Counted from the stretch's first letter, positions 9,873 through 59,815 are shown. The stretch is 64,000 bases of DNA from Rikenellaceae bacterium (GCA_044433965.1 JAWXTF010000001.1:23912-87911); one strand, 5' to 3'. Numbers and translations are program-made. The notes: generated from the letters alone by a model not told the origin.

Positions 9873-10508
9873 TGCTTGATTGTTTCTTTCTGTGCGCTTC
9901 TTACTGCCTCCGGCGGGCGGAGATAACACCTCCGCGGGGTGCATACCTTTTTTCTTTCTGTGCGCTTTGGACTGCCTCCGGCGGGCGGGGATAGCACCCC
10001 CGCGGGTGCATACCTTCTTGCGCAGATGTGGTGGGGGCTTTGCCCCCCAACGAGATATCTACTCTGAGGAGCTTATGAAAATGAATTTTCAACGCTCATC
10101 AGAGTAGATATCTCTGTGTCAACCTACGGTTGCCACCACCACATCTGCGAGGTAAACCTCGATTTGGATTTAAATGCCAAAGGCATTTAAAGAATTATAA
10201 AGACCAATGAGTTGTGCAAATGAATTTACGACAACCTATGGTTGCCACCTCAGTATCTGCGAGGTGAACCTCGATTTGGGTTTAAATGCCAAAGGCATTT
10301 AAAGAATTATAAAGACCAATGAGTTGTGCAAATTTATTTGCGGCAACTCATTGGTCTTTATAATCTTAGAGATGCAATCTCTAAGCCCAAAGCGCAAAGG
10401 TACGCACCCGCGGGGGTGCTATCCCCGCCCGCCGGAGGCAGTCAAAAGCGCACAGAAAGAAACAAGCAAGCAGCGCACAGAAAGAAACAAGCAAGCAGCG
10501 TACAGAAG
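9873..10508. repeat. Modular palindromic repeat family, copy 1 (head-to-head composite)
   Basis: Two forward left-end modules (ctgcctccggcgggcggggatagcacccccgcgggtgc) are followed by a reverse-oriented long unit with an internal 112-bp duplication (10120 vs 10232). It sits between convergent genes. Confidence 0.95.
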
Positions 10509-10524
10509 TCAACCCCAACAAGTG

Positions 10525-11412
10525 TTATTTTTCGAATCGATAGTAAGTACCGAGGGGGAGTTCTTTCTCGGAGCGATCTACGAATACGAGTTCGCCGCAG
10601 CTTTCGTGTTTAGCTTCACCAAATGCTTGGCGTAGTGCGGTGCGTGCGAGTGTTGAGGAGAGTCCCATGGAGTATAGGTTTAGTATGACGAAGCTATTTT
10701 GGGGTTCTAAGAGTGCGGCGCAGCACTCCAGCATCTCGCAGATATTCTCTTCCAGCACCCATTTTTCTCCATTTGCACCACGACCATATGCTGGAGGGTC
10801 GAGGATGATGGCACTATATTTATTACCACGACGCACCTCACGTTGCACAAATTTTAGGGCATCCTCCACAATCCAGCGAATACCCTCCAAGCCGCTACTC
10901 TCCATATTCTCGCGGGACCAGCTCACAACCTGCTTCACGGAGTCTACGTGTGTTGTTTCGGCTCCTGCTGCACATGCTGCCAGCGAGGCGCCACCGGTGT
11001 ATGCGAAGAGGTTGAGCACCTTTGGGCGAGTGCCCTTTGCGGAGGCTATCTCGCGGCACTTATCGTATATAAAGTTCCAGTTTGCGGCTTGTTCAGGGAA
11101 TATCCCAACATGCTTGAATGAGGTGAAGGCAAGACGCATTTTGAGGTGCATCTCTTTGTAGTTGTAGCTTATCGACCAGCGCGAGGGCACCGAGCGTCCC
11201 ATGCGCCAGTCGCCTCTCTCCTCGCTGCGTCCGTCGCGCATAAACGAGGCGTCGGCAGCTGCACGCCACTGCTCCTCGCTTAGGCTCTTGCGCCAAATTG
11301 CCTGAGGCTCAGGACGTCGCGTGGTGATATTGCCAAAACGCTCTAACTTCTCAAACTCACCGGAGTCGAGTAACTCGTAGTCGGGAAATGTTGGTGTTAA
11401 ATTCTTATTCAT
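10525..11412 (-). CDS. Class I SAM-dependent methyltransferase (COG1092 / RlmI-RlmK-like)
   Basis: Motifs YELLDSG, FKHVGIFPEQ, VLNLFAYTGG and ILDPPAYGRG. Confidence 0.88.
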   Translation of the reverse strand: MNKNLTPTFPDYELLDSGEFEKLERFGNITTRRPEPQAIWRKSLSEEQWRAAADASFMRDGRSEERGDWRMGRSVPSRWSISYNYKEMHLKMRLAFTSFKHVGIFPEQAANWNFIYDKCREIASAKGTRPKVLNLFAYTGGASLAACAAGAETTHVDSVKQVVSWSRENMESSGLEGIRWIVEDALKFVQREVRRGNKYSAIILDPPAYGRGANGEKWVLEENICEMLECCAALLEPQNSFVILNLYSMGLSSTLARTALRQAFGEAKHESCGELVFVDRSEKELPLGTYYRFEK

Positions 11413-11466
11413 ATTTCTTTTGATAGAGTATTGTTATTTATTAATATTCGAGGATAACAACTCCCC

Positions 11467-13269
11467 TCACACAAGAATTAGATTCATGCGGCACTCCTTG
11501 CAGTCAAAATCGAGACGGTACCGCACTCCGCCCCGTTCAACAAAGAGCTCTCCTTTGAGCTGCGGTCTCTCTTTGAGGCACTCACCAATCTCGCGACGAA
11601 TGCAGTATGAACTCTGCATCACACGTTGCTCGCAAAAGTCGGCTGTTAGGTCGTGCCCCTCGTCGATGCTCGTGGCGCCATGGTCCAAGTAAAACTGACG
11701 CGCTACGGAGTTGACAACATTAAACTCTGGCGAGAGCCTCTTCTCGGGGCACTTAGCCGCCATATTTTCGGCAAATGGAGCTGTCTGCGAGTAGTTCTCC
11801 AGGCGCACGGTGCGAAGTTTATCGAGGGCTTCACGGCGCAAGTCAGCGAGCAGGGAGGAGGCAACAAACCTCACTTCACCCTCCATCACCACGCGCACTA
11901 CATTGAATATGGTGTCGCCACTCTTTGAGAGTTGCATCTTTGCGACCTCCTCCATCTTGGCTACATTGCGAGGCAGGTCAAAGATGCCTTCGCGACCCAC
12001 CACAATCGAGGCACCCGTTATATCGCGGTATATCAGCTCAATGTAGTTCGGGAGAGTACGTAATGTTGCCTCCACCTCAATCGTGCGACGTGTGCGGCTA
12101 CGCTCCAAGGAGTCGTTAAAAGCCTTGTCGAAGTTGCGGAATAGCTCTACGCCATGGGTCAACCCCTCGGTTCGATTTGGTGATATCCACTCACCCTCCA
12201 CACGGTTTATATTTGTCCCCATAAGTCCTGTTTGAGTTACGAAGCAGACCCCATCACCAGCATGTAACTCACTATTGATCTGCAACTTAAAGCAACCTCC
12301 TTTCTGCTGAGTGATTGTGCCTATACGCTCCCCCACCGACTTGGGAGTGTCGAACGAAGCTAACCCTCTGCTCTGCCCCCAAAAGAGATATTCGGACTCT
12401 CCACGTGTGAAGCTTTTGGAGGGGTTTGGTGCAAAATCCAACTTCGAGTCCCCCACCGAAGCCCGCTCCAAGTCGGCTCTTTGCGCCAGCTCCTTGTCGA
12501 GCGCTGCACGGTAGTAGGCAACAATATTTTTGGTGTATCCGAGATCCTTGAGCCGCCCCTCAATCTTGAATGAAGAGACTCCAACGTCGAGCATAGCGCC
12601 AATTTGAGCTGATAGATTTAGATCTCGCACCGAGAGTAAATGTTTGTTTTCGAGTATCTTAGCACCCTCAGCATCACACAAGTCGTAGCTTAGCCTACAA
12701 GGCTGACTGCACTCGCCACGGTTTCCACTACGCTCCGAGAGCGAGCGAGATAGGTAGCAGCGACCACTATGACCCACACATATTGCGCCATGGACAAATG
12801 CCTCTAACTCCACATCTGTAGCTTTGGCGATAGCCTCAATTTGGCTTAACGAAAGGGCTCGTTCGAGCACAACTCTCGAAAAACCGCACTTCTCCAAGAA
12901 GCGCACCCCTTCGGGAGTCATATTGCACATCTGGGTCGAGGCGTGGAGGTCGACACCAAGGTTCATGCGAGCAAAAGCCATATCTTGGACAATAAGAGCG
13001 TCGACACCAGTAGCGACAATCTCGCGCGCAGTAGCCTCAGCCTCACGTAGTTCGGATTCGAAGAGCAGAGTATTGAGCGTGCAGTGTACCCTCACACCAT
13101 AGGCATGGGCATACTCCACCACAGCGGCGATATCGTCGATAGAGTTCGACGCAGCATGACGCGCACCAAACTTGGCACCACCTATATATACAGCATCCGC
13201 TCCGTAGTCAATGGCAGCAAACGCCGACTCTCGACTCTTAGCGGGTGCCAAAAGCTCAATTTTCTTCAT
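11467..13269 (-). CDS. U32 family Fe-S protein with long C-terminal (DUF3656-like) region, RlhA-like
   Basis: IELLAPA start; HGAICVGHSGRC...NRGECSQPCR; LLSVRDL; KIEGR; 600 aa, ending in a CxxC. Confidence 0.85.
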   Translation of the reverse strand: MKKIELLAPAKSRESAFAAIDYGADAVYIGGAKFGARHAASNSIDDIAAVVEYAHAYGVRVHCTLNTLLFESELREAEATAREIVATGVDALIVQDMAFARMNLGVDLHASTQMCNMTPEGVRFLEKCGFSRVVLERALSLSQIEAIAKATDVELEAFVHGAICVGHSGRCYLSRSLSERSGNRGECSQPCRLSYDLCDAEGAKILENKHLLSVRDLNLSAQIGAMLDVGVSSFKIEGRLKDLGYTKNIVAYYRAALDKELAQRADLERASVGDSKLDFAPNPSKSFTRGESEYLFWGQSRGLASFDTPKSVGERIGTITQQKGGCFKLQINSELHAGDGVCFVTQTGLMGTNINRVEGEWISPNRTEGLTHGVELFRNFDKAFNDSLERSRTRRTIEVEATLRTLPNYIELIYRDITGASIVVGREGIFDLPRNVAKMEEVAKMQLSKSGDTIFNVVRVVMEGEVRFVASSLLADLRREALDKLRTVRLENYSQTAPFAENMAAKCPEKRLSPEFNVVNSVARQFYLDHGATSIDEGHDLTADFCEQRVMQSSYCIRREIGECLKERPQLKGELFVERGGVRYRLDFDCKECRMNLILV

Positions 13270-13288
13270 TACACCTAACTATTTTTTG

Positions 13289-13347
13289 CAAAGGTAGAAA
13301 CTTAGTTGGTAAGAGCCTACGCATTTGCCATTTTTTTTATAACTTTG
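13289..13347. promoter_or_regulatory. Divergent Bacteroidota sigma-A -7 boxes (U32 gene / serS)
   Basis: TACCTTTG on the minus strand (13289-13296) and TAACTTTG on the plus strand (13340-13347, with TTTG at 13324) both match TAnnTTTG. Confidence 0.6.
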
Positions 13348-13388
13348 CAGATTATAATGCAAAATTCAATCAAAAGATATAATCAGAG

Positions 13389-14660
13389 ATGTTAACACTC
13401 AAACAATTAAGAGATGACCGCCAAGCAGCTATCGAGCGTTTGGCTAAAAAAGGCGTAGATGCCGCACCAATCATCGACAAGATAGAGTCCCTTGACGACC
13501 GTCGTAAAGCTATCCAACAAGAGTTGGACAGCGCACTTGCCGACCAAAACAGAGCAGCAAAGTCAATAGGTATGTTGATGGGTCAAGGCAAAAAAGAGGA
13601 GGCTGAGGCCGCTAAAGCCGAGGTTGCTCAATCGAAAGTACGTTCAGCAGAATTGGCTGAAGAGGCTAAAACAATCGCCGACGAGTTGCAAGCGACAATC
13701 GTATTGTTGCCAAACTTCCCTGCCGAGATCGTTCCCGAGGGACGCACAGCCGAGGACAACTTAGTGGTGAAACTTGCCGAAGATCACGTAGAACTTCCCC
13801 AAAATGCACTTCCCCACTGGGAGCTCGCTCGCAAATACGACATCATCGACTTCGACCTGGGCGTAAAGCTCACCGGTGCCGGATTCCCAGTCTACAAAGG
13901 CAAGGGCGCTCGCCTTCAACGTGCTCTCATCAACTTCTTCCTCGACTGCAACACCGCCGCTGGCTACCAAGAGATTGAGCCTCCAGTGATGGTCAACGAG
14001 GCTTCAGGATTTGGTACTGGTCAATTGCCCGACAAAGAGGGACAGATGTACCACTCAACAGCCGACAACCTCTACTTAGTGCCTACAGCCGAGGTTCCCG
14101 TAACCAATATCTTCCGCGATGTGATTCTCGATGAGAAGGATTTCCCAGTGAAGATGACTGCATACACTCCATGCTTCCGCCGTGAGGCAGGTTCATATGG
14201 TAAGGATGTACGTGGTCTCAACCGCCTACACCAATTCGATAAGGTCGAGATCGTGCAACTTGCACTCCCCGAGAACTCATACGAGGCTCTCGACAAGATG
14301 GTCGAACACGTTGAGTCAATCGTCAAAAAACTTGGTTTGCCCTACCGCATCTTGCGCCTTTGCGCTGGCGATATGTCATTCACATCGGCCCTAACATACG
14401 ACTTCGAGGTCTACTCAGCTGCTCAAGAACGCTGGTTAGAGGTCTCCTCGGTATCTAACTTCGAATCTTTCCAAGCAAACAGACTTAAGCTTCGCTACAA
14501 AGATTCTAACAAAAAGAGCCAATTGGCACACACCCTTAACGGTTCTTCGTTAGCTTTACCACGAATTGTGGCAGCACTTTTGGAGAACTACCAAACAGAG
14601 GATGGAATTAAGATCCCTGAAGCTCTAATTCCTTACACAGGTTTTGATATTATAAAATAA
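13389..14660 (+). CDS. serS: Seryl-tRNA synthetase
   Basis: N-terminal coiled coil; motifs YLVPTAEVP, FRREAGSYGKD, HQFDKVE, EVSSVSN and HTLNGS. Confidence 0.98.
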   Translation: MLTLKQLRDDRQAAIERLAKKGVDAAPIIDKIESLDDRRKAIQQELDSALADQNRAAKSIGMLMGQGKKEEAEAAKAEVAQSKVRSAELAEEAKTIADELQATIVLLPNFPAEIVPEGRTAEDNLVVKLAEDHVELPQNALPHWELARKYDIIDFDLGVKLTGAGFPVYKGKGARLQRALINFFLDCNTAAGYQEIEPPVMVNEASGFGTGQLPDKEGQMYHSTADNLYLVPTAEVPVTNIFRDVILDEKDFPVKMTAYTPCFRREAGSYGKDVRGLNRLHQFDKVEIVQLALPENSYEALDKMVEHVESIVKKLGLPYRILRLCAGDMSFTSALTYDFEVYSAAQERWLEVSSVSNFESFQANRLKLRYKDSNKKSQLAHTLNGSSLALPRIVAALLENYQTEDGIKIPEALIPYTGFDIIK

Positions 14661-14711
14661 AACAGTATATTTGTTTTATCAATTATTTACTAACAAATAA
14701 AATTCAAGAAA

Positions 14712-14882
14712 ATGGCTTACAAAATTAATCCTGACGGTTGCGTTGCATGCGGCACATGCATCGACGAATGTCCAGTAGAGGCTATCTCAGCTGGTGATGT
14801 TTACATGATCGACGCTTCAGCTTGTATCGATTGCGGTGCTTGCGCTGGCGTGTGCCCTTCTGAGTGCATCGAGGCTGAATAG
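14712..14882 (+). CDS. 2[4Fe-4S] ferredoxin, 56 aa (absent from the ORF track)
   Basis: Manual translation MAYKINPDGCVACGTCIDECPVEAISAGDVYMIDASACIDCGACAGVCPSECIEAE* has two CxxCxxCxxxCP motifs. An upstream TATATTTG box lies at 14666-14673. Confidence 0.96.
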   Translation: MAYKINPDGCVACGTCIDECPVEAISAGDVYMIDASACIDCGACAGVCPSECIEAE

Positions 14883-14900
14883 TTATCGACACATTCACAC

Positions 14901-14937
14901 AAAAACGACTTCCATTCTGTGGTAGTCGTTTTTTTTG
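14901..14937 (+). terminator. Intrinsic terminator after the ferredoxin
   Basis: Stem aaaaacgact(t)cca / tgg(t)agtcgttttt with a T-tract. Confidence 0.75.
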
Positions 14938-14940
14938 GTG

Positions 14941-15569
14941 CTTGCTTGGTGGTTGGTTGGTTGGTTGGTTGGTTGGTTGGTTGGTTGGTTGGTTGCTGCT
15001 TGCTGTGCGCTTCTCACTGCCTCCGGCGGGCGGGGATAGCACCCCCGCGGGTGCATACCTTTTGCGCTTTGGGCTTAGAGATTGCATCTCTAAGATAATA
15101 AAGACCAAAGAGTTGACGCAAATTCATTTGCACAACTCTTTGGTCTTTATTATTCTTTAAATGCCTACGGCATTTAAACCCAAATCGAGGTTCACCTCGC
15201 TGATGTTGAGGTAGCAACCATAGGTTGACACACAAAATCTGTATTGAAAGTTTATTCTCAAGCCCAAATCAAGGTGAACCTCGCTGATGTGGTGGTGGCA
15301 ACCGAAGGTTGACACAGAGATATCTATTATGAGGAGCGTTGAAAGTTCACTTTCAAAAGCTCATCATAATAGATATCTCGCAGAGGGGCAAAGCCCCCAC
15401 CACATAAGCGCAACAAAAAAAGTCAAAAACGAAGTTTTTGGATCCAAGCTAAGCTTGGTGCCGCGCGGCATGAGCGCAATAAGCAAGCAAACCCCAAAGC
15501 ACCCAAAGCACCCAAAGCACCCAAAGCACCCCAAAGCAAAGCCCCACCCCACGAGCGCAATAAGCAAGC
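14941..15569 (+). repeat. Modular palindromic repeat family, copy 2, with (GGTT)11 and (CCCAAAGCA)5 flanks
   Basis: Near-complete forward unit at about 15001-15490; GGTT x11 at 14951-14994; 9-mer array at 15493-15538. Confidence 0.95.
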
Positions 15570-15592
15570 TATTATTCAAGCAATTGTCCTAC

Positions 15593-17643: not shown

Positions 17644-17679
17644 CTTTGTATCTTTTAATTTTAATTTCTTTTTGTGGGA

Positions 17680-17821
17680 TGCTTTCTCTGCTTTTAGGAC
17701 TGCTTGCTGCGGTTGCCTTCTCTGCTTTTCGGACTCTCTCCCAGGGGTGGAGTTATTATTGCGAATTTAGTTTTTAGAGACCAAATTCGAGGTTCACCTC
17801 GTCTCCTTTGTGGTGGTAACC
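17680..17821 (+). repeat. Degenerate fragment of the modular repeat family (copy 3)
   Basis: ccaaattcgaggttcacctcg...gtggtggtaacc resembles the family module ccaaatcgaggttcacctcgctgatgtggtggtggcaacc. It overlaps the stop of the upstream minus-strand ORF. Confidence 0.55.
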
Positions 17822-18027
17822 CTCTCAATAGTATCACTCTTAAGCGTATCGCACTTAAGCGTGTCACTCTTAAGCGCGTCAAGCTGAACACTATCAACCT
17901 CATCAGCTTTCCACTCAAACAGCTCTGCGGGGAGCATCGAGGTGTAGCCGCCACGATTGAGCACCACAAATGTTGCTACACCTACCACTGCAATTGTGAG
18001 CAGCACCCTAAGTAGTCGCGAGATCAT
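17794..18027 (-). CDS. Small hypothetical membrane-anchored protein, 77 aa
   Basis: N-terminal hydrophobic helix and D(T/A)LK(S/C) repeats; the start overlaps the S41 protease stop. Confidence 0.55.
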   Translation of the reverse strand: MISRLLRVLLTIAVVGVATFVVLNRGGYTSMLPAELFEWKADEVDSVQLDALKSDTLKCDTLKSDTIERVTTTKETR

Positions 18028-19682: not shown

Positions 19683-19693
19683 ATTCTAATTTA

Positions 19694-20890: not shown

Positions 20891-20914
20891 CTTATACCGT
20901 TATTGATTAGGGTG

Positions 20915-20940
20915 CAAATTTAATAAAATTATTACCTTTG
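20915..20940. promoter_or_regulatory. Back-to-back -7 boxes (DUF3078 gene / nfo)
   Basis: TAAATTTG on the minus strand (20915-20922) and TACCTTTG on the plus strand (20933-20940). Confidence 0.6.
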
Positions 20941-21002
20941 TACAATACAAATGAGGTTTTTTTACCTGCACGTAGAGAATTAGAAACAAAAACTTTAGCA
21001 CA

Positions 21003-22682: not shown

Positions 22683-22958
22683 GGTTGCCACCTCAGCATC
22701 AGCGAGGTGAACCTCGATTTGGGTTTAAATGCCGTAGGCATTTAAGAAATTATAAAGAGCAATGAGTTGTGCAAATTTATTTGCGGCAACTCATTGCTCT
22801 TTATAATCTTAGAGATGCAATCTCTAAGCCCAAAGCGCAAGAATGTATGCACCCGCGGGGGTGCTATCCCCGCCCGCCGGAGGCAGTCCGAAGCGCACAG
22901 AAAGAAGCAAGAAGCGCACAGAAGGCAAGCATAGACTCCGCCCGCCGGAGGCAGTCCA
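22683..22958 (-). repeat. Modular palindromic repeat family, copy 4 (left half, reverse orientation)
   Basis: It carries the same hairpin modules as copies 1 and 2 and lies between convergent genes. Confidence 0.95.
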
Positions 22959-32100: not shown

Positions 32101-32447
32101 AAATCTAAAAATGTTTTTGTTGGAACAGTGAATTATGGTGCAATTTATGATATTTTTTTAAAATTTCAAAATCAATAAGCGCCAACAGGAGCCTCTAAGA
32201 GGTGGAATATAAGCTATTTTACAACTAATATATAAGATCTTAAAGATGTGATTTTTGCGAAGTGTAAGCGAATCGATTGGTTAAAATGCAAGATTAAAAC
32301 TATTAATAGTGTAAATTTGAAAATTTGTAACTTAAGACAGCAGCATCTAAAGAAATTTGTAATTTCTCGAAAAAATGTACCTAAGTATTGGTATTGATAT
32401 ATAAAATTGATACTTTTGCCACTAAATCACTATTTAAAACTATTCAC

Positions 32448-32816
32448 ATGAAAAAATTACTTTTATTAACCATCCCTCTATTCACCCTCCTTTTTGCATC
32501 ATGCGAGAAGTCTGATGACAATGCAGCCGAGAGCACAGAATTTACACTCTCAATTACCCCCTCAAAGGCTAAAGTGGGCGAGGTAGTAACACTCAAAATC
32601 AGTGGCGAAGGCGCCGAAGAGAAACAATGGTCCGTCTGCTACGACTACGAAGGAGGTGGCGGTAGCTGCCTTATATTTGCTCCAGGTAACGCAACCCAAG
32701 ACCTTACCCTTAGCGAAACTATATTTATCGCCGGCGAATATGATTTCCACGCTAAATATACCAACGAGGGCGAAGAGATCGAAATTAATCATGTTACACT
32801 TACTGTGACTGAGTAA
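32448..32816 (+). CDS. Small single-domain lipoprotein (Ig-like)
   Basis: MKKLLLLTIPLFTLLFASCEKSDD lipoprotein signal from the ATG at 32448; TACTTTTG box at 32411-32418. Confidence 0.8.
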   Translation: MKKLLLLTIPLFTLLFASCEKSDDNAAESTEFTLSITPSKAKVGEVVTLKISGEGAEEKQWSVCYDYEGGGGSCLIFAPGNATQDLTLSETIFIAGEYDFHAKYTNEGEEIEINHVTLTVTE

Positions 32817-32820
32817 AATC

Positions 32821-33270
32821 TTCGGTTCGGTTCGGTTGCTTTCTGCGCGCTTCGGTTCGGTTGCTTTCTGTGCGCTTCTTACTGCCTCCGGCGGGCGGGG
32901 ATAGCACCCCCGCGGGTGCATACCTTTCTTGCGCTTTGGGCTTAGAGATTGCATCTCTAAGATAATAAAGACCAAAGAGTTGACGCAAATAAATTTGCAC
33001 AACTCCTTGGTCTTTATTATTCTTTAAATGCCTACGGCATTTAAACCTAAATCGAGGTGAACCTCACAGATGTGGTGGTGGCAACCAAAGGTTGACACAG
33101 AGATCTCTATTCTGAGGAGCGTTGAAAGTTCACTTTCAAAAGCCCCTCAGAGTAGATATCTCGCCGGGGGGCAAAGCCCCCACCACATCAGTGCAATACA
33201 AAAATCAAAAACGAAGTTTTTGGATCCAAGCTTAGCTTGGTGCCGCGCGGCATGAGCGCGATAAGCAAGC
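32821..33270 (+). repeat. Modular palindromic repeat family, copy 5 (most complete single unit)
   Basis: It has the full module order from ctgcctccggcggg to ggatccaagcttagcttggtgccgcgcggcatgagcgc and lies between convergent genes. Confidence 0.95.
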
Positions 33271-33296
33271 GGCAACCAAGGCATCAAAGCCCTCCT

Positions 33297-34541: not shown

Positions 34542-34659
34542 ACTATCTAAGTTTTAAAGTTGTTTTTTACGCATTAGAGAACAAAAATAGTAATTTTTTC
34601 TCGACAATTTTGCTTTATTTCATTTTTTTACTACTTTTGCACCATTAAGAGGCGATTAT

Positions 34660-40168: not shown

Positions 40169-40447
40169 TGCTCATTGCGCTTGCTTTTTTGATGCTTGCT
40201 CTTGCTTGCTCATGCCTGCTCATTGCGCTCGTGCCGCGCGGCACCAAGCAAGCTTGGATCCAAAAACTTCGTTTTTGACTTTATTTTTGTTGCACTGATG
40301 TGGTGGGGCTTTGCCCCTTTACAAGAGATCTATTCTGAAGAGCTTTTGAAAGTGAACTTTCAACGCTCACCAGAATAGATCTCTTGCGTGTCAACCTTCG
40401 GTTGCCACCACCACATCAGCGAGGTTCACATCTCTTACACCCCCAAC
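40169..40447 (-). repeat. Modular palindromic repeat family, copy 6 (right half, reverse orientation)
   Basis: It starts 3 bp after the xylE stop and shares the extra module gtgtaagagatgtgaacctc with copy 9. Confidence 0.95.
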
Positions 40448-40499
40448 CTCCACTACCAACCTCCTCCCAGAAAGTCCCAGAAAGTCCCAGTCAGTCTCA

Positions 40500-40960
40500 G
40501 AAAACCCCTGTTAAAAACCTGTTAACAACCCCCAAAAACCTGTCAACAACCCTTAAAAAAATGTTAATTACTCATACAATATCATGATGATAACTATTAA
40601 TAAGTTTTATAACATTTCTATTGACAAGAGCGAAAAAATTTATAAGCAACAAAAGATCTTAAAAGTCAAGAAAAAGTTATTAAAAGTTATCATCAACAAT
40701 AATGTAGGGTTATCAAAGGTTAATGTTAACAAAAAATAGATGTTAATATGTTAATAAATATTGCAAACAATTGTTAACTTTGCGATGTTAAAACTATTAT
40801 ACTACTAAATTATAGCTATATAACAGTGATTTCTACAATTTAGTTATTAACAACTCGCAAATTTGTTGTTTATAACTAAATTGGTCAAATTGGTTATCAA
40901 CACTATCAACAGCTATTATATTTATTATTATAATTAAATTATTTATAAAGAAAAGAAAAA
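40500..40960. other. Candidate chromosomal replication origin (oriC)
   Basis: About 460 bp, very AT-rich and non-coding. DnaA-box-like 9-mers at 40520, 40541, 40690, 40724, 40749, 40844, 40867, 40894 and 40903; trio-like triplets CTA TTA TAT TTA TTA TTA TAA TTA at 40913-40936. Confidence 0.7.
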
Positions 40961-41913: not shown

Positions 41914-41934
41914 ATCATTGATTACACTTAACTG

Positions 41935-41983
41935 AACTGCCTTCGGCAGGTGGGGTATTATCTTCCACCTGCCGAAGGCAGTT
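41935..41983. terminator. Hairpin between convergent nadA and deoC (likely bidirectional terminator)
   Basis: Perfect 19-bp stem aactgccttcggcaggtgg / ccacctgccgaaggcagtt with an 11-nt loop. Confidence 0.75.
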
Positions 41984-42048
41984 ATAATTTCAAGAATACT
42001 AATTAAGGTTTAAACCTCACTAAGCCTTAATTCGTGTTAAGAAGTATG

Positions 42049-42927: not shown

Positions 42928-43012
42928 AAATTTGGTTGTAAAAGTGTTTGCTACAAAGATATGAATAAATTAGAAGAGTTACAAATTCAATTCATAATTC
43001 ATAATTTATAAT

Positions 43013-43534
43013 TCATAATTCACAACACTCCTTTGCAACTCTCTCTATTTGGCTACTCTCAACATCATTGGTTAGCACCTTATAGAAAAAGTTTTCAACA
43101 CTCTCATAATTGTTGTTGATCTTTCCCGAAAGACAGCGGTAGAAGTCATTAAGCTGCTCTACACTGAGGCTATCTGCCAAAATACCCTGGTTGATAAGCG
43201 TGCGGTAGGGGTAGAGGTAGCGCAACGAGGTGGCATCGGCGTCGATATCTTCGATGATGCTCGCAACAACCCACATATCTAAACTGTCGTTGTATGAGGG
43301 CATAACAACAAGCTGTGAATAGATAGGGTAACTCCGCTCAACATCTGTTGAAATGTTGTTCGCAAAGAGTACAAATTCAGCATTGTTGAACTCATTGAGA
43401 TAGACCATGTCGCGGTAATTGTCAATTGTTGCTGCAAACTCAACTCTTTCATCATCAGTCCATTTGGTAGGTTGTGAACAACCAATTGTTAATAACATTA
43501 GCACCACAATAGCGCTTAATAGTGATTTTCTCAT
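43013..43534 (-). CDS. Hypothetical lipoprotein
   Basis: MRKSLLSAIVVLMLLTIGC lipoprotein signal. Confidence 0.7.
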   Translation of the reverse strand: MRKSLLSAIVVLMLLTIGCSQPTKWTDDERVEFAATIDNYRDMVYLNEFNNAEFVLFANNISTDVERSYPIYSQLVVMPSYNDSLDMWVVASIIEDIDADATSLRYLYPYRTLINQGILADSLSVEQLNDFYRCLSGKINNNYESVENFFYKVLTNDVESSQIERVAKECCEL

Positions 43535-43593
43535 AAATGTTTATATTTGTTAATTTATCTTCGTGCGGCAAGTTCAATGCCATTTATTTATAC

Positions 43594-44084
43594 TGCTCTC
43601 TGTGCGCTTCTTTCTGTGCGCTTCTTTCTGCTTGCGGTTGCTTTCTGTGCGCTTCGGTTGGGTTCTTGCGGTGCTTTCTGTGCGCTTCTTACTGCCTCCG
43701 GCGGGCTGGGATAGCACCCCCGCGGGTGCGTATCATTGCGCTTTGGGCTTAGAGATTGCATCTCTAAGATTATAAAGATCAAAGAGTTGCCGCAAATAAA
43801 TTTGCACAACTCTTTGGTCTTTATAATTTTTAAATGCCTATGGCATTTAAACCCAAATCGAGGTTCACCTCGCTGATGTCGCGGTAGCTGCCGTAAACTC
43901 ATTTGCACAATTTCCTGATCTTTATAATTTTTAAATGCCTATGGCATTTAAATCAAAATCGAGGTGATCCTCGCTGATGTGCAAGGGGGCAAAGCCCCAC
44001 CACATCAGTGCAACAAAAAGTCAAAAACGACAGTTTTTGGATCCAAGCTTAGCTTGGTGCCGCGCGGCACGAGCGCGATAAGCA
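43594..44084 (+). repeat. Modular palindromic repeat family, copy 7 (the only copy in a divergent intergenic region)
   Basis: Several tandem ttctgtgcgctt linkers, an internal partial duplication, and loss of the large tgaaa hairpin module. Confidence 0.95.
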
Positions 44085-44258
44085 GTTATTTTCAGGTGTT
44101 TCAAAGAGTAGGAAATAATGGTAATTCCGAAATATTTTATATCTTTGCATCAATCAATGTAAAATAAAATTGATGTTAATCACGTTACATTATTGGGGAG
44201 ATTATATCTCGACCGGAGAAGTAACAAAAATAAGTAACAACCTTAAAACACCAAAGGC

Positions 44259-48160: not shown

Positions 48161-48194
48161 ACCCTATATTTTTCTCTACACACCAAACTTATTT

Positions 48195-49127: not shown

Positions 49128-49131
49128 AATC

Positions 49132-49749: not shown

Positions 49750-49792
49750 GGAGTTGCTGAGAGTTTTTTTTCTGGGACTTTCTGAGACGTAT

Positions 49793-50040
49793 GCGAGGTG
49801 AACCTCGGTGATTTGCTCATGGCAACCGGAGGTTGACATTAAAAAAATAGTATACTTAAGTGTTGAAAATTCATTTTCAAAAGCTTAAGTATACTATTTT
49901 TTTTGTAGTCGCTGCAAGCGACGAGCAAATCAGTGCAATAATACGCACCCGCGGGGGTGCTATCCCCGCCCGCCGGAGGCAATCCGAAGCGCACAGCAAG
50001 CAACCGCAAGCAACTCGAAGCGCACAGCAAGCAACCGCAA
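49793..50040. repeat. Modular palindromic repeat family, copy 8 (diverged composite)
   Basis: A forward large-hairpin module with replaced arms, plus a reverse left-end module, between convergent genes. Confidence 0.9.
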
Positions 50041-51746: not shown

Positions 51747-51758
51747 GATATATATAAT

Positions 51759-52732: not shown

Positions 52733-52876
52733 GCCTAATTATTGTATTTAGTAGTCAATAGTAGCCCAGATGAACTTCGTACACACCCTTAGCAGATGCA
52801 AAGCTACAATAAAAAAATCATATTGCGAAGAGTAAAGATCTATTTTGCAGGGCAAACACACGAAAATATTATCTCT

Positions 52877-53605
52877 TGCTGCCTTCGGCGGGCGCTTGCT
52901 TGCTTTCTGTGCGCTTTTTGCTTCTTTCTGTGCGCTTCTTTCTGCCTCCGGCGGGCGGGGATAGCACCCCCGCGGGTGCGTATCATTGCTTCTTTCTGTG
53001 CGCTTCTTTCTGCCTCCGGCGGGCGGGGATAGCACCCCCGCGGGTGCGTACCATTGCGCTTTGGGCTTAGAGATTGCATCTTTAAGATTATAAAGAGCAA
53101 GGAGTTGCCGCAAATAAATTTGCACAACTCCCTGCTCTTTATAATTTTTAAATGCCTTTGGCATTTAAACCCAAATCGAGGTGAACCTCGCTGATGTGGT
53201 GGTGGCAACCGAAGGTTGACACAGAGAGATCTATTATGAGGAGAAATGAAAGTTGGGCGTGTAAGAGATGTGAACCTCGCTGATGTGGTGGTGGCAACCG
53301 AAGGTTGACACAGAGAGATCTATTATGAGGAGCGTTGAAAATTCATTTTCAAAAGCTCATCATAATAGATCTCTCGCAGAGGGGCAAAGCCCCCACCACA
53401 TAAGTGCAACAAAAAAAAGTCAAAAACGAAGTTTTTGGATCCAAGCTTGCTTGGTGCCGCGCGGCATGAGCGCGATGAGCAAGCTCCCCAAGCGGCAACC
53501 CCAAGCAAAGCCCCACCACATAAGTGCAACAAAAAAAGTCAAAAACGAAGTTTTTGGATCCAAGCTTGCTTGGTGCCGCGCGGCATGAGCGCAATAAGCA
53601 AGCAA
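52877..53605 (+). repeat. Modular palindromic repeat family, copy 9 (longest; several modules duplicated)
   Basis: The left module occurs twice plus a partial, the middle module is restarted, and the terminal ~120 bp is tandemly duplicated (53401 vs 53521). Confidence 0.95.
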
Positions 53606-53659
53606 AACAAAGCAGCAAAACAAGTTGTACACCATGCGATTGCCCCTCAAAAAAAGTAC

Positions 53660-54409: not shown

Positions 54410-54420
54410 TGCGTCACCTC

Positions 54421-56214
54421 TTAAAGTTTAACCTTGTAGGGGGAGTACATCACCATACCATCCTTCGAGAAGAGTGGTTCGAGAGCCTGATGAGCGCTAT
54501 CCACCTCTTTGAGGTTGAGAGGGTTGGAGATGTTGAGAAGTGACTGAGCTTTGGCGCTCACGCCCGAGAGAATTGCAGCTAACCCTGTTAGCTCCTCGCT
54601 CATCTCAACTATGCGATACTCTTCGAGACCCGCCTTGTTGCCCGCTATCGCCACAGCCTCTTTGAGTCCTCCAATCGAGTCGGCAAGACCCAACTCAACA
54701 GCCTCGCTGCCACTCCACACACGACCTTGAGCAATTTCGAGCACCTTCTCCAGTGGTAGGTTGCGCCCCTGAGCAACAAGCGACGTGAAGCGAGAGTATA
54801 CCTTATCGACATTTTGAACCATCATCTTACGTTCAAAGTCGGTGAGGCTCTTCAAAGAGCTCATAAAGCCTGCCGAGGTGTTGGTCTGCACGCCATCGAA
54901 GGTTATTCCTAAATTATTTTGTAGTGCCGACTCCACATCGAACATAACGCTAAAAACGCCTATAGAACCGGTGATGGTGAGGCGGTCAGCCACGATAACG
55001 TCGGCAGGTGCCGAGATGTAGTAGCCTCCCGAAGCGGCATAACTACCCATAGATACGATTAGAGGCTTCTCTTTGCGTAGTAGCTCTAATTCGCGCCACA
55101 TAACATCGGATGCCAACGCGCTACCACCTGGTGAGTTCACACGAAGCACAACAGCTTTGATCGACTCATCGTAGCGAGCCTTGCGGATTGTGGCTGCTGT
55201 GGCATCGCCATAGACTTTGTTGTCGGATCCATTTCCATCGACTATACTACCCTCGGCATAGATTATAGCTACCTTCTCGGCACCATAGCTGCTTAGAGGC
55301 TCGCCAAGTGAGAAGATGTAGTCGCTGAAGGAGATGTAGTTCACCTTATTGTCGTCGCCATTGATCTGAGCACCAGCCTCACGGAAGAGCGCGGGGAGTT
55401 GATCCTCATAGATCAATCCATCGACCATACCTCTCTCAAGTGCCAACTCAACATCCATACACTCCAAATTATCGGCAATTGAGTTTACCTGATCGAGGGT
55501 GAGACCACGCGACAGAGCGACATCGCCCGCAATAACACCCCACATAGAACCCAATAGCTGCTCCATCTGAGCACGGTTGGCTGGCGACATCTTGTCTAAG
55601 ATGTAGGGCTCAACAGCCGACTTGAAGCGACATGTGGAGGGGCGAAACACCTCAACGCTCATATCCAATTTGTCGAGTAGCCCCTTGTAGAACATGGTGC
55701 TGGATGCCATACCCTGCCAGAACATCATCCCCTCGGGCTCCACATAGAGCTTATCGGCAACCGAAGAGAGGTAGTATCCCGATTGAGTGTAGATGTCGTT
55801 GTAGGCGATAATTGGCTTGCCGCTCTTCTCCTTGAAGAGTGCAAGGGCTGAGCGGATCTCCTCCAATGCTGCGGTAGAGACGCTCGACATAGGGCTGATG
55901 TGGAGGTATATAGCCTCAATATTATCATCCGTTGTGGCTGCCTCAATTGCGGTGAGTGCATCAAGCAGTGTGAGGCTTGGCACCATCTCCATTGTGGAGA
56001 AGTTGAGCTGCGCAAAGGGGTTTGTTTGAGGCGCCTCCGAGAAGGTCTCATTGAGCTCAATTTTGAGAATCGACTCTGCGGAGAGTGTAACCTCCTCACT
56101 AAGACTCAACGAACCCGCAAAGCCAATAAGAAGAACTAACCAAAGTATAAAACCAAGAATGCCACTGACAATAGAGCCAAGCACAACAATCCAAAATAGT
56201 TTAAAATAATTCAT
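54421..56214 (-). CDS. sppA: Signal peptide peptidase SppA (67K type)
   Basis: Motifs YYLSS.AD, FKSAVEP, LRVNSPGGSALASD, SMGSYAASGGY, TGSIGV and GRVWSG. Confidence 0.96.
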   Translation of the reverse strand: MNYFKLFWIVVLGSIVSGILGFILWLVLLIGFAGSLSLSEEVTLSAESILKIELNETFSEAPQTNPFAQLNFSTMEMVPSLTLLDALTAIEAATTDDNIEAIYLHISPMSSVSTAALEEIRSALALFKEKSGKPIIAYNDIYTQSGYYLSSVADKLYVEPEGMMFWQGMASSTMFYKGLLDKLDMSVEVFRPSTCRFKSAVEPYILDKMSPANRAQMEQLLGSMWGVIAGDVALSRGLTLDQVNSIADNLECMDVELALERGMVDGLIYEDQLPALFREAGAQINGDDNKVNYISFSDYIFSLGEPLSSYGAEKVAIIYAEGSIVDGNGSDNKVYGDATAATIRKARYDESIKAVVLRVNSPGGSALASDVMWRELELLRKEKPLIVSMGSYAASGGYYISAPADVIVADRLTITGSIGVFSVMFDVESALQNNLGITFDGVQTNTSAGFMSSLKSLTDFERKMMVQNVDKVYSRFTSLVAQGRNLPLEKVLEIAQGRVWSGSEAVELGLADSIGGLKEAVAIAGNKAGLEEYRIVEMSEELTGLAAILSGVSAKAQSLLNISNPLNLKEVDSAHQALEPLFSKDGMVMYSPYKVKL

Positions 56215-56340
56215 AATGCTTTTTATTTGAAAAAGTTAATAATCGATATATGTTACAAAGATAACGATTTAAAAGCATTATTGCAATAATAAAAAATAAA
56301 CGTAGCAAGTAAACGCGCGAAAAAAAATTGCTCATCGCGC

Positions 56341-56806
56341 CTTGGGTTGTTTGGGTTGGGTATGGGTTTGGTTGGTAGTTGGTTGCTTGGTAGTTGGTTG
56401 CTTGGTAGTTGGTTGCTTGGTAGTTGGTTGCTTGTTGGTTGGTTGCTTGTTGCAGCTCTTTGAGCTGCTCGCCCTCTGCGCATTTTTGTTTCAAAAATGC
56501 TTTTTTTGAGGGAGGGCGATGGCTGGGGACTGCGCTCATGCCGCGCGGCACCAAGCTTAGCTTGGATGCAAAAGCCTTTGGCTTTTGACTTTTTTTTGGT
56601 GTTTGCTTTGGTGTTTGCTTGGGTTGGTTGCTTGCTTGTTGCAGCTCTTTGAGCTGCTCGCCCTCTGCGCATTTTTGTTTCAAAAATGCTTTTTTTGAGG
56701 GAGGGCGATAGCTGGGGACTGCGCTCATACCGCGCGGCACCAAGCGAGCTTGGATCCAAAAGCCTTTGGCTTTTGACCCCTTTGGGTTTGTTTGTTACTT
56801 GTTGCA
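56341..56806 (-). repeat. Variant of the modular repeat (copy 10): tandem duplication plus a 15-mer array
   Basis: GGTAGTTGGTTGCTT x4 (56374-56433), then two near-identical units that share gcgctcatgccgcgcggcaccaagc..cttggat with the main family. Confidence 0.9.
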
Positions 56807-58048
56807 GCTTCCCGCGATCATCGTTCCATTGAGGAATACTTTTTCGATCAGGGGAGAGGTGTAAGCGTAGGTGAAGTAATCAAGTGAGGGTATAGGCTTA
56901 GTAATAAAGAAGTTAGCTACTTTCCCCACTCCTATCGAACCATAGTTGTTGCTTTCGCCCATGGCGGCGGCACCATTTATTGTTGTGGCATTTATCGCCT
57001 CGGTGGGTGTCATGCGTAGTGTCATTGTAGCCAGCGAAGCTATCATGCGCATTGAGCCCATTGGCGACGACCCCGGGTTGAAGTCGGAGGCTAAAGCAAC
57101 CTTGGCGCCAGCCTCAATCAAGCGGCGAGCAGGAGGGTAGGGTATACCCAAAAAGATAGCGGCTCCAGGCAGGAGTGTAGCCACCGTCTCGGCTGTCGAG
57201 AGTGCCTCTATCTCGGGCTCTTCGATCCTTTCGAGGTGATCCACCGAGAGTGCGTTGTGTGCCACTCCAAGCTGCACACCGCCCGAATTGGCAAGCTCAT
57301 TGGCGTGAATCTTTGGACGCATGCCATGCTTTGCGGCAGCCTCCACTATGCGCTCAGTCTCGGAGAGTGTGAAGAACCCTTTGTCGCAAAATACATCTAC
57401 AAAGTCCGCTAAGGAGTCGGCAGCTACCGCCGGTATCATCTCGTTGATAATCAAGTCGACATACTCCACTTGGCGGTTAGCGTAGGCGCGTCCCACGGCA
57501 TGAGCCCCCAAGAATGTTGAACGCACGGCAAGTGGCGATGTCTCACCTATGCGGCGCACAACACGGAGCATCTTCAGCTCATCCTCGGTGGTCAATCCAT
57601 ATCCGCTTTTGATCTCTACGAGTCCTGTGCCCTGCGCAATGATCTCGTCTATGCGCCCCATAGCTTGGGTGTAGAGCTCCTCTTCGGTTGTTGCGTGGAG
57701 CAGGTCCGCCGAGTTGAGTATTCCGCCACCTCGCTGGGCTATCTGCTCATAGCTAAGTCCATTGATCTTGTCGACATATTCGCCCTCGCGGCTACCTGCA
57801 TATACAAGGTGTGTGTGCGAGTCGCAAAACGAGGGGAAGAGATATCCCCCTTTGGCATCGACCACTTTGGTTGCCTCAACCTCGCAGGGCTCATCCATCG
57901 AGCCCCATCCAGCGAAGCGATCATCCTCGACAAGCAACCAAGCGTTGTTGAGGGTCTCTATTTGAGACATCTCGGCACCTCGTAGCGACTCCACACCCTC
58001 GGTGTCGAGCCCTACAAGGCAACCAATATTAGATATTAGGAGCGTCAT
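56795..58048 (-). CDS. hutI: Imidazolonepropionase
   Basis: Motifs DSHTHLVYAGSRE, EIKSGYGL, GAH, DVFCD, HANEL, DHLE and ASDFNPGS. The ATG at 58048 overlaps the hutH end. Confidence 0.96.
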   Translation of the reverse strand: MTLLISNIGCLVGLDTEGVESLRGAEMSQIETLNNAWLLVEDDRFAGWGSMDEPCEVEATKVVDAKGGYLFPSFCDSHTHLVYAGSREGEYVDKINGLSYEQIAQRGGGILNSADLLHATTEEELYTQAMGRIDEIIAQGTGLVEIKSGYGLTTEDELKMLRVVRRIGETSPLAVRSTFLGAHAVGRAYANRQVEYVDLIINEMIPAVAADSLADFVDVFCDKGFFTLSETERIVEAAAKHGMRPKIHANELANSGGVQLGVAHNALSVDHLERIEEPEIEALSTAETVATLLPGAAIFLGIPYPPARRLIEAGAKVALASDFNPGSSPMGSMRMIASLATMTLRMTPTEAINATTINGAAAMGESNNYGSIGVGKVANFFITKPIPSLDYFTYAYTSPLIEKVFLNGTMIAGSCNK

Positions 58049-59522
58049 TTTCTGCAATAAATTTTACTGAACTTGCGATGTGTGTGTAGAGCACCTCATC
58101 GCAGTCGACAAATGGTACAATCTTGCGGTACTCGGCAACTACCTCCTCAATTATAGCGGAGCTACGTAACGGACGTCGGAACTCCAACGCCTGAGCAGCA
58201 TTGAGCAGCTCGATAGCCAACACACGCTCCACGTTGAGCACCACTCTGCGTAGCTTGGTAGCAGCATTCGAGCCCATACTCACGTGATCCTCCTGACCTT
58301 GTGACGAGGTGATAGAGTCCACCGAAGCAGGCATGCATAACCCCTTTGTTTGGCTCACAATAGAGGCAGCAGTATATTGAGGAATCATAAATCCACTATT
58401 GAGACCCGGCTTAGCGACCAAGAAGCTTGGCAAGCCCCGCACACCAGCAACCAATTGATATACACGGCGCTCAGCAATATTGGCAAGCTCCGCCATAGCT
58501 ATCGCCAAGAAGTCCATCGCAAGGGCTATAGGCTGTCCGTGGAAGTTACCTGCCGAGATAATCTCGTCGGTATCCGGAAATATCGTTGGGTTGTCGGTGG
58601 TAGAGTTGATCTCAGTTGTGATAACACTCTCGACATAGGCTATACTATCTTTCGAGGCGCCATGAACCTGTGGAATACAGCGGAAGGAGTAGGGGTCTTG
58701 CACAGCCTTGCCCTCAGCCGAAAGCATCTCGCTACCCTCCAACAGTGCTCTAAAGCGACGAGCAGTCTCGATCTGCCCTGCATGCGCACGCACCTGCTGA
58801 ACATTGTCGCTAAAGGGCTCAATACGTCCGTTAAAGGCGTCGAGCGCAAGAGCTCCCAACGTGTCAGACCAGTCACTAAGGCGCTTCGCCTTGATGAGAG
58901 ACCACACACCATAGGCACTCATAAACTGAGTACCATTGAGAAGCGCCAAGCCCTCCTTGGAGTGGAGCGTAACCGCCTTCCACCCAAAGTGATCATTAAC
59001 TACCGCCGATGCCATGACCTTACCTTGATACTCCACCTCACCAAGACCCAAAAGTGGCAACGAGAGGTGTGCCAAGGGCGCTAAGTCTCCCGAAGCACCC
59101 AGAGAGCCCTGCTCATAGACCACAGGCAGAATATCGTTGTTGTAGAGCTCGATCATACGTTCGAGTGTCGTGAGCTGCACTCCCGAGTGACCATAGGCAA
59201 GTGACTGAATCTTAAGGAGTAACATTAGCTTTACAATAGGTGAGGCTACTCTGTCTCCCGTGCCACAGGCGTGCGACATCACCAAGTTGGATTGAAGCTG
59301 CGAAAGCTCACCTGGACTTATCGAGATGTTGCAAAGAGAGCCAAAACCTGTAGTGACACCATAGATGGGACTCTCCTGCGTAGCCATCTTCTCATCGAGA
59401 TATTGACGACACTTGGTGACACGAGTGCGTGCATCGTCACTAAGGGTGATTTTGTAGTTCTGCTCTAAGATTGTGCGTAGCATATCTATTGTAAGATGCT
59501 CAGCGCTAATTTGGTGAATCAT
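58029..59522 (-). CDS. hutH: Histidine ammonia-lyase
   Basis: YGVTTGFG, the MIO-forming GASGDLAPL, KEGLALLNGTQ, QDPYSFRC and NFHG. Confidence 0.97.
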   Translation of the reverse strand: MIHQISAEHLTIDMLRTILEQNYKITLSDDARTRVTKCRQYLDEKMATQESPIYGVTTGFGSLCNISISPGELSQLQSNLVMSHACGTGDRVASPIVKLMLLLKIQSLAYGHSGVQLTTLERMIELYNNDILPVVYEQGSLGASGDLAPLAHLSLPLLGLGEVEYQGKVMASAVVNDHFGWKAVTLHSKEGLALLNGTQFMSAYGVWSLIKAKRLSDWSDTLGALALDAFNGRIEPFSDNVQQVRAHAGQIETARRFRALLEGSEMLSAEGKAVQDPYSFRCIPQVHGASKDSIAYVESVITTEINSTTDNPTIFPDTDEIISAGNFHGQPIALAMDFLAIAMAELANIAERRVYQLVAGVRGLPSFLVAKPGLNSGFMIPQYTAASIVSQTKGLCMPASVDSITSSQGQEDHVSMGSNAATKLRRVVLNVERVLAIELLNAAQALEFRRPLRSSAIIEEVVAEYRKIVPFVDCDEVLYTHIASSVKFIAENDAPNI

Positions 59523-59573
59523 AGTGTTTTGGGTTGTGTATTTTTTTTGATATTTCTTTCTTTCTTTTTGTTT

Positions 59574-59815
59574 CTTGCTGTGCGCTTCGGTTCCTTTCTG
59601 TGCGTTTCGGACTGTCTCCGACGGGTGGGGATGGCACCCCCACGGGTGCGTACCTTTTTGCGCTTATTATTGTGGGCGCTTGTAGCGCTTACGATCTTTA
59701 ATAGTAAAGGTAGTCTTATGAAAGCTCGCTTTCAACGACAACATTTACTATTAAAGATCTATGTCAACCTACGGTTGCCACCACAAAATAAGCGAGGTGA
59801 ACCTTGGGTGAACCT
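59574..59815. repeat. Modular palindromic repeat family, copy 11 (diverged composite)
   Basis: A diverged left module (ctgtctccgacgggtggggatggcacccccacgggtgc) followed by a reverse large-hairpin module with new arms. Confidence 0.85.

Follow-up and report, generated by a model that had tools for sequence, protein, structure and literature searches.

A dispersed family of modular hairpin repeats with compensatory stem turnover in Rikenellaceae

A 64,000-nt chromosome segment of a Rikenellaceae bacterium (GCA_044433965.1 JAWXTF010000001.1:23912-87911; hereafter the window, with positions counted from its first nucleotide) contains pieces of one repeat family in 12 of its spacers. The stems of these repeats keep Watson–Crick complementarity and matched arm lengths while their sequence turns over. 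We interpret the family, with a probability of about 0.5, as a lineage-restricted, non-coding, dispersed mosaic resembling repetitive extragenic palindromic (REP) sequences, bacterial interspersed mosaic elements (BIMEs) and miniature inverted-repeat transposable elements, or MITEs, in which the hairpins are constrained in single-stranded form and the loops and junctions act as protein contacts. The kind of repeat is already known, because compensated stems in dispersed palindromes have long been recognized in REP-type repeats, but the family is new, being set apart by the number of its modules, a three-way junction, and hypervariable matched mid-stems. We found no account of such repeats in Rikenellaceae in the literature searched.

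Modular architecture and compensatory turnover of stems

Named in the orientation that reads ctgcctcc first, the modules of a full element (~400–650 bp) follow the order short tandem repeats, B, CDEF, GHI, and then either J or an inverted B. B consists of two small G+C-rich hairpins, with stem 0 reading CTGCC/GGCGG and stem 1 GCGGGG/CCCCGC. C, E, and F are small hairpins, and D is the long stem of an earlier, sequence-only reading of this DNA (the original prediction). GHI forms a three-way junction: besides its closing stem it has hairpin G (CAACC/GGTTG), hairpin I, and H, which is the large hairpin of the original prediction and has the conserved tip TGAAAR...YTTTCA. J, an alternative right end, comprises three small hairpins. 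Five to seven additional hairpins lie between B and the right end. The recurrent orders are B-CDEF-GHI-J, B-CDEF-GHI-B(inverted), B-CDEF-B(inverted), and B-GHI-B(inverted), together with their reverse complements; B is therefore a terminal inverted repeat. GHI is found in either orientation relative to B. J is a diverged B-like end; its reverse complement contains an A-like motif and then two small hairpins, and when the whole element is folded (plus-strand z = −11.6, minus-strand z = −10.4) J pairs with the left end.

The 38-nt core of B, the left module, occurs nine times in the window at ≤3 mismatches, against 0 expected. A scan of one genome per species with the B pattern, written with N wherever the original prediction had seen covariation, located at least 62 loci; among the matches listed, all were in assemblies designated 'MAG: Rikenellaceae bacterium', from seven species. 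Profile searches over the window and 62 loci from these metagenome-assembled genomes (MAGs), 514 kb in all, recovered ~115 copies of B, ~82 of CDEF, ~52 of GHI, and ~34 of J. Covariation was assessed in alignments of 112 distinct B, 65 CDEF, 41 GHI, and 31 J copies, with 500 shuffles and a slid-partner control.

In these alignments the stems are 94–98% paired despite their changing sequence, and compensatory pairs number 5/11 in B, 34/42 in CDEF, 27/40 in GHI, and 4/18 in J. For B, 98.2% of stem cells are paired, double-change cells number 102 against 25.8 ± 3.8 in shuffled alignments (0/500), and the covariation score is 0.254 compared with ≤0.049 when partners are slid. One B position alternates among G-C, A-U, and U-A, and others show G-C/C-G and C-G/U-A. 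Double-change cells reach 500 versus 131 shuffled in CDEF and 197 versus 58 in GHI (0/500 for both). The compensatory pairs of GHI include its long-range closing stem: most copies in the window have GATGTGGTGG/CCACCACATC there, and other copies have GATTTGCTC/GAGCAAATC. Many pairs carry three to four different Watson–Crick types, and many of the swaps are transversions (A-T to T-A, G-C to C-G).

The original prediction of a conserved fold under constraint is thus borne out by the diversity of pair types, the covarying arm lengths, and the retained loops, and all of the variants on which it was built are present at the positions given. Stem 1 reads gcggag/ctccgc at 9917–9922/9930–9935 and gtgggg/ccccac at 59625–59630/59638–59643, and stem 0 reads ctgtc/gacgg at 59612–59616/59620–59624. 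The four cited pairs of large-hairpin arms have wholly changed sequences and remain complementary, the inner tgaaaR/Ytttca changes in pairs, and gtg..cac becomes atg..cat near 49819. The four long-stem variants also occur, although one of them, the 53.1-kb gagcaag/cctgctc, falls short of full pairing by an A-C mismatch. The proposal that B maintains two mutually exclusive stems gains no support beyond conservation: gcaccc/gggtgc is conserved as sequence, with covariation not above that of the shuffles.

Turnover is unevenly distributed within each copy. Conservation reaches ≥85–95% in the D and H tips, throughout E and G, and at the junctions. Mid-stems in C, D, H, and I vary strongly, with the conserved segments interleaved among them in the same copies. 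Loops, bulges, and junctions are conserved across eight species. The 34 D hairpins of one genome contain 27 distinct mid-stem 10-mers that differ on average at 5.2 of 10 positions; in 17 of these hairpins the opposite arm matches perfectly, and in six it has one mismatch. Arm lengths are correlated (r = 0.82 for H, 0.64 for D), and a one-nucleotide offset between the arms is retained. Further irregularities persist: a T-G pair in stem 0 of B (109/112 copies), a basal G-T pair in D (60/65 copies), asymmetric internal loops in D and H in nearly all copies, and a C-A/C-C mismatch inherited by at least six copies of one genome. The interleaved conservation, matched stems, and kept asymmetries together indicate that complementarity is actively maintained and that sequence-specific contacts are under purifying selection.

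Conserved sequence blocks in loops and junctions, and the regular spacer arrays in which the palindromes lie, would also suit duplex binding sites for dimeric nucleoid or regulatory proteins, in which case the hairpin would never form. A dimeric binder, however, would conserve its half-sites, and here these vary freely while staying complementary, with compensatory changes at 34/42 and 27/40 pairs and near-unique mid-stems, making this explanation highly improbable.

Some D hairpins are exact chimeras, each arm being identical to that of a different copy (L012:2627-2763, L009:3610-3754, L024:520-662, L054:4970-5113, and L007:5096-5241, each numbered within its MAG locus). They are recombinants of dispersed copies with a crossover in the conserved tip. 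Stem variants are also genome-specific, with 24/24 B copies of one genome carrying A-T where others carry C-G. The elements have thus multiplied and recombined within genomes.

Neutral DNA mechanics, such as quasi-palindrome correction, mismatch repair of extruded hairpins, or gene conversion between arms, could also have produced the covariation without selection on the fold, by copying a change in one arm into its partner. Several observations are of the type this would generate: matched insertions and deletions in both arms, transversion swaps without a wobble intermediate, rare loop flips (e.g., TTCA/TGAA, ~5%), and the inter-copy recombinants themselves. G-T is no commoner than A-C when all modules are summed (~1.7% and ~1.5% of cells, with the two fixed G-T pairs set aside), and the rarity of both fits Watson–Crick-only complementarity. 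Compensated double differences also exceed one-sided differences ~3:1, even in copy pairs differing at 5–10% of unpaired sites, but this comparison is weakened because unpaired sites are themselves conserved and low divergence is not proof of recent ancestry; for the same reason we discarded low-divergence copy pairs as 'young' pairs for timing compensation. Against a purely neutral origin, the fixed T-G and G-T pairs, the asymmetric loops, and the arm offset of D and H have survived, mismatches have been inherited, and chimeric hairpins have gone uncorrected, so that arm homogenization alone is unlikely. The greater conservation of loops and junctions than of mid-stems further implies purifying selection on the same copies. 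We therefore regard neutral mechanics as an unlikely full explanation, and gene conversion between arms, which the original prediction had raised, as an unlikely sole cause, although arm homogenization may speed compensation.

Genomic placement and strand polarity

In the sampled DNA, elements occupy 43/57 convergent spacers, 32/221 tandem spacers, and 4/46 divergent spacers, and B often starts 12–50 nt past a stop codon. Eighty equally related metagenome loci syntenic around the seryl-tRNA synthetase (SerRS) gene (L064-L143, 971 kb) contain no module. Their SerRS proteins are 64–85% identical in amino acids; several of the loci are from the human gut, and some have a G+C content near 64%. These module-free relatives retain the gene order methyltransferase-U32 peptidase-SerRS-ferredoxin, and the ferredoxin/DUF4924 spacer in one of them (e.g., L070:11337-11566) is 61 nt long with one plain, bidirectional-looking terminator hairpin. 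The same spacer in the window is 710 nt long and holds its own canonical terminator as well as an element. The elements are therefore additions to otherwise compact 3' spacers, mainly between convergent genes. Occupancy also varies among carriers: the spacer 5' of nadA has three different module sets in three species, and some spacers that hold elements in a MAG hold none in the window. No copies were found in viral contigs, phage records, or plasmid records.

The original prediction held that several G-T pairs would act as wobbles only on the ctgcctcc-first strand. On that strand GHI has 64 G-T versus 12 A-C mismatch cells, whereas CDEF has 21 versus 59 (fixed G-T left out) and B has 8 versus 10 (fixed T-G left out). 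A strict count, in which arms were aligned per copy and a mismatch needed two Watson–Crick pairs on either side, gave G-T:A-C ratios of 14:2 for H, 12:25 for D, and 0:3 for E. These counts must be interpreted with caution because copies within a family are non-independent samples. Predicted RNA folding energies favor the ctgcctcc-first strand in 94/112 B, 35/41 GHI, and 21/31 J copies, and the opposite strand in 49/65 CDEF copies. The strand asymmetry is real and module-specific, with GHI, B, and J favoring the ctgcctcc-first strand and CDEF the other; strand specificity thus stands module by module, with no single favored strand for the element. A symmetric mechanism of arm correction would leave such asymmetry unexplained.

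Structured RNA is one alternative for such hairpins. Read-through transcription from neighboring genes or promoters of their own could make the modules functional as terminators, 3'-end stabilizers, or small RNAs, the covariation then reflecting selection on the RNA fold of a defined strand. The position of elements directly past stop codons and between convergent genes would suit this, as would the GHI three-way junction with its conserved junction nucleotides and G-U excess (64:12, and 14:2 in H alone), the fixed U-G in stem 0 of B, the better folding of B, GHI, and J on the ctgcctcc-first strand, the terminator-like hairpin and T-run on the reverse strand of J, and a Bacteroidetes-type promoter at 44225–44255(−) aimed into one element. 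Orientation, however, is effectively random in tandem spacers, where sense and antisense copies relative to transcription number 23:18 for B, 15:10 for CDEF, 10:12 for GHI, and 5:8 for J. This lack of bias argues against a strand-specific RNA of the 3' untranslated region. CDEF prefers the opposite strand, GHI lies in either orientation relative to B, and outside GHI G-U is about as rare as A-C; neither the fixed orientation nor the one-strand G-U enrichment throughout that a generic structured RNA would have was seen in the sampled copies. A canonical terminator already stands 5' of the element at 14.9 kb, and no full-consensus Bacteroidetes promoter lies inside any element. Rfam 15 at gathering threshold gave no family for the repeats, its sole match in the window being tRNA-Gln, and in E-value mode returned just sub-threshold matches to generic miRNA-like hairpin models. 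A single transcript spanning the element is unsupported because module polarities differ, GHI occurs in both orientations, orientation in tandem spacers is random, and one element lies within the hutU-hutH gene row. We consider functional RNA rather unlikely, although GHI and B stem 0 give it real support. Where the original prediction invoked selection on RNA or single-stranded DNA structure, a constrained fold is supported and one strand-specific RNA is not.

Two candidate signals within the hairpins were examined and rejected. The D tip GCAAATAAATTTGC (15130–15145, 32997–33010, and others) contains TAAATTTG, which matches the −7 box of Bacteroidetes promoters. Many copies have TGAATTTG rather than TAAATTTG, the TA is not conserved, and no −33 TTTG box stands alongside; the match is probably a coincidence of sequence. 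Core sites resembling those of integron attC sites in hairpin E have, as we read the sequence, the wrong polarity.

Relation to known repeat systems and proposed mechanism

We propose that these repeats preserve the capacity of every module to form its hairpin in the single-stranded state, and that a protein copying or processing the element would make contact with the conserved loops and junctions. Polarity would belong to the individual module, hence the constraint would not fall on one long transcript. The constrained form would somewhat more likely be single-stranded or extruded DNA during copying or replication than RNA, because orientation relative to genes is random, pairing is nearly exclusively Watson–Crick, insertions and deletions are matched, and recombinants occur. 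Templated arm-to-arm correction probably adds to the speed of compensation.

REP/BIME clusters and REPINs are found in Proteobacteria and are mobilized by REP-associated tyrosine transposases (RAYTs), encoded by IS200/IS605-like Y1/HUH genes that are typically flanked by the repeats. The Rikenellaceae elements resemble them as short G+C-rich hairpins in 3' spacers that favor convergent gene pairs, in their inverted pairs and mosaics with other motifs, and in their high-copy, species-specific abundance. REP stems also show compensated changes, the enzyme recognizes a single-stranded hairpin, and the transposase of some families is unknown; REP/RAYT is the closest precedent (PMC3733652). Unlike REP/BIME, the present family has a Bacteroidota host, more and longer module types, 60–70 nt hairpins, a three-way junction, and hypervariable mid-stems. 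The REP tag GTAG is not conserved in the 112 aligned B copies, and CGTC occurs in B only as a by-product of the stem 0 A-T variant of one genome. A RAYT-like gene was not seen among the window genes, among element-flanked genes, or in a crude HUH...Y scan of the 514 kb.

Similarity to MITEs lies in a non-coding unit of a few hundred bp with terminal inverted repeats (B+...B−), strong fold-back, and dispersed intergenic sites; B+...B− bounds CDEF and/or GHI at many loci. MITEs can also have internal tandem or modular substructure, as in a Porphyromonas gingivalis MITE with the BrickBuilt minisatellite (PMC4596501), and Correia/NEMIS and ERIC offer further comparisons. The Rikenellaceae elements differ in having ragged ends, and neither a target-site duplication nor a parent insertion sequence sharing their ends was found; no such autonomous parent was seen in the 514 kb or in related DNA totaling 971 kb. 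BOX elements of Streptococcus pneumoniae, built as boxA-boxB(n)-boxC, are likewise intergenic, with a variable number of modules and stable predicted hairpins. The modular build, variable module number, hairpins, and intergenic sites are shared with BOX, but sequence and host are unrelated, and the present family greatly exceeds BOX in module number and in the extent of stem covariation. In integron attC sites the fold is conserved over the sequence, arms vary while still pairing, bulges are kept, and the single-stranded substrate is strand-specific. Our elements share with attC the conservation of fold rather than sequence, freely varying paired arms, and conserved bulges. They form no cassette arrays and have no nearby integrase (none was found in the window), the R/L core sites do not follow the attC arrangement, and copies are dispersed among housekeeping genes in both orientations.

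Several results weigh against the REP/BIME/MITE-like interpretation. Pfam searches of 46 window open reading frames (ORFs) and seven element-flanked genes detected no transposase or mobilizing gene, and a crude HUH/Y-motif regular expression over the 514 kb yielded no mobilizer gene; inspection of ORFs in long element-adjacent spacers also found no transposase. Comparison of filled and empty orthologous spacers did not define a target-site duplication or sharp ends, because the spacers fail to align at 70–79% coding identity. Three species with no more than 70–79% identity between their genes share the most frequent 38-nt B core unchanged, and this could reflect host-level selection instead of selfish spread. 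The 5:1 excess of G-T over A-C in GHI and the fixed T-G of B stem 0 also fit RNA, and the opposite polarities of CDEF and GHI are not predicted by a single-strand transposition intermediate.

A more specific version, which we consider distinctly unlikely, is that the modules, above all GHI, are substrates of some structure-specific Bacteroidota enzyme in a system similar to REP/RAYT with no sequence relation to it, each hairpin being read on its own strand as single-stranded nucleic acid and the near-unique, perfectly matched mid-stems being regenerated by hairpin-templated synthesis as a copy arises.

With this family, Bacteroidota have a clear, high-copy equivalent of REP/BIME and MITE repeats, which have been studied mainly in Proteobacteria and Firmicutes. 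It provides a rich natural covariation set, with several hairpins showing three to four pair types per position and conserved loops beside hypervariable stems, and a good system for learning how dispersed palindromes stay paired, whether by selection on single-stranded DNA, selection on RNA, or templated correction. It also calls for caution in RNA-motif discovery, as repeat families that are not strand-specific RNAs can yield strong covariation statistics. The repeats swell spacers to ~5–7% of the DNA and offer substrates for recombination, and they will break up metagenome assemblies of the clade.

Copies in the window and neighboring features

Matched modules add up to 3,167 bp (4.9% of the window); once the simple repeats and fragments attached to them are counted, the family covers ~4.8 kb (~7.5%). 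The leftmost element opens with a B carrying gcggag/ctccgc and one extra G at 9899–9949(+), placed by nhmmer and sequence, followed by a canonical B at 9967–10016(+). Next are GHI at 10018–10152(−), with closing stem, G, large H, and I hairpins; a partial CDEF at 10147–10242(−), comprising the 3' half of D and then E and F; and CDEF at 10259–10397(−), with C, the long D (gaccaat/attggtc), E, and F. The B at 10397–10446(−) is the inverted partner of 9967–10016 and completes the terminal inverted repeat, and outer short tandem repeats, the reverse complement of CTTTCTGTGCGCT-type units, occupy 10447–10510(−). A second element, entirely on the plus strand, runs from outer simple repeats at 14922–15011, (GGTT)n then GCTTGCTGTGCGCTT, through B (15012–15061), CDEF with D stem gaccaaa/tttggtc (15060–15200), a partial GHI (15195–15265), and GHI with H arms tctattatga/tcataataga (15279–15413), to J (15418–15485).

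A degenerate fragment at 17665–17830(+) comprises outer repeats, a B0-like hairpin, and an F hairpin CGAGGTTCACCTCG. Adjoining it, 5' of the prolyl-tRNA synthetase (ProRS) gene, are three tandem units of ~15 nt (CACTCTTAAGCGYRT) at 17830–17890. On the minus strand, CDEF with D stem gagcaat/attgctc (22702–22842) and B (22842–22891) are accompanied by a truncated extra copy of B stem 0 outside the full B (22936–22958). The complete order B (32877–32926), CDEF (32927–33067), GHI (33062–33196), and J (33198–33267) is present on the plus strand beside ORF 32385–32813, which has no Pfam match and an N-terminal lipoprotein-type signal, MKKLLLLTIPLFTLLFASC. Its sequence suggests that it is probably a genuine small lipoprotein gene, and as a real gene it makes the spacer at 32817–33296 convergent.

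J at 40217–40282(−) and GHI at 40290–40424(−) stand together. The feature at 41934–41984, to which no strand was assigned, is a minimal palindrome in which two ends resembling B stem 0 are joined, AACTGCCTTCGGCAGGTGG / CCACCTGCCGAAGGCAGTT; it is perfect over 19 bp, lies between convergent nadA and a DeoC-family aldolase gene, and may be a minimal or collapsed element. The plus-strand element that follows has outer tandem repeats of CTTTCTGTGCGCTT units (43593–43686), B with one unpaired change, gctggg (43687–43736), CDEF (43736–43873), a partial CDEF (43886–43974), and J (44016–44084). The promoter at 44225–44255(−) is directed into this element at 43.6–44.1 kb and, if used, would make it part of a long 5' leader belonging to gene 43013–43534. 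GHI at 49803–49938(+) has fully different H arms, aaaaaaatagtatacttaag/cttaagtatactattttttt, and the closing stem GATTTGCTC/GAGCAAATC, and adjoins B at 49938–49987(−).

A further series, all on the plus strand, starts with a truncated copy of B stem 0 plus outer tandem repeats (52880–52936) and continues with B (52937–52986), a tandem second B (53005–53054), CDEF whose D stem gagcaag/cctgctc has one A-C mismatch (53054–53191), a partial GHI (53186–53254), GHI (53275–53409), J (53415–53481), and a second J (53534–53600). Two reversed J copies, at 56529–56593(−) and 56718–56778(−), lie within the first and second units of a 189-bp tandem duplication (56434–56556, 56623–56745) whose units are 98% identical. 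The duplication also contains an extra hairpin module, CGCCCTC...GAGGGAGGGCG around TTTGTTTCAAAAATGC, found nowhere else in the window, and a T-run after the reverse-strand J hairpin that resembles an intrinsic terminator. Finally, B with ctgtc/gacgg and gtgggg/ccccac at 59607–59656(+) and GHI with H arms gatctttaatagtaaa/tttactattaaagatc at 59658–59797(−) make up an element (59523–59853) between co-directional hutU and hutH in the hutU-hutH-hutI row. This element is either tolerated within the operon or splits it.

Element ends are ragged, with partial B hairpins reiterated together with simple repeats and without a sharp terminus. Short tandem repeats at outer ends include CTTTCTGTGCGCTT units, (GGTT)n, four copies of CCCAAAGCA, and five of the 15-nt TGGTAGTTGGTTGCT; such repeats lie at 43593–43690, 52907–53005, 10447–10510, 14949–14995, 15495–15530, 56359–56448, 2749–2790, and 40460–40500. 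Similar repeats, GGGGGCTTTCT / GGGACTTTCTG, are also held by element-free spacers. In other genomes the outer repeat consists of the reiterated first bases of B, (CTGCCTTTCTTA)n, with a stack of truncated B stem-0 hairpins beyond the full B.

The window itself is gene-dense, bacterial, and ~49% G+C. Its genes have housekeeping and metabolic functions and include those for formiminotransferase-cyclodeaminase, SerRS, ferredoxin, ProRS, NadA, RNase HII, TatD, and LspA, the hutU-hutH-hutI row, and a single tRNA-Gln. Full-consensus Bacteroidetes-type promoters (TTTG-N17-22-TAnnTTTG) number five against 0.9 expected, at 7034–7064, 14643–14673, 34609–34639, 42954–42985(−), and 44225–44255(−), and four of the five stand 5' of genes or of tRNA-Gln.

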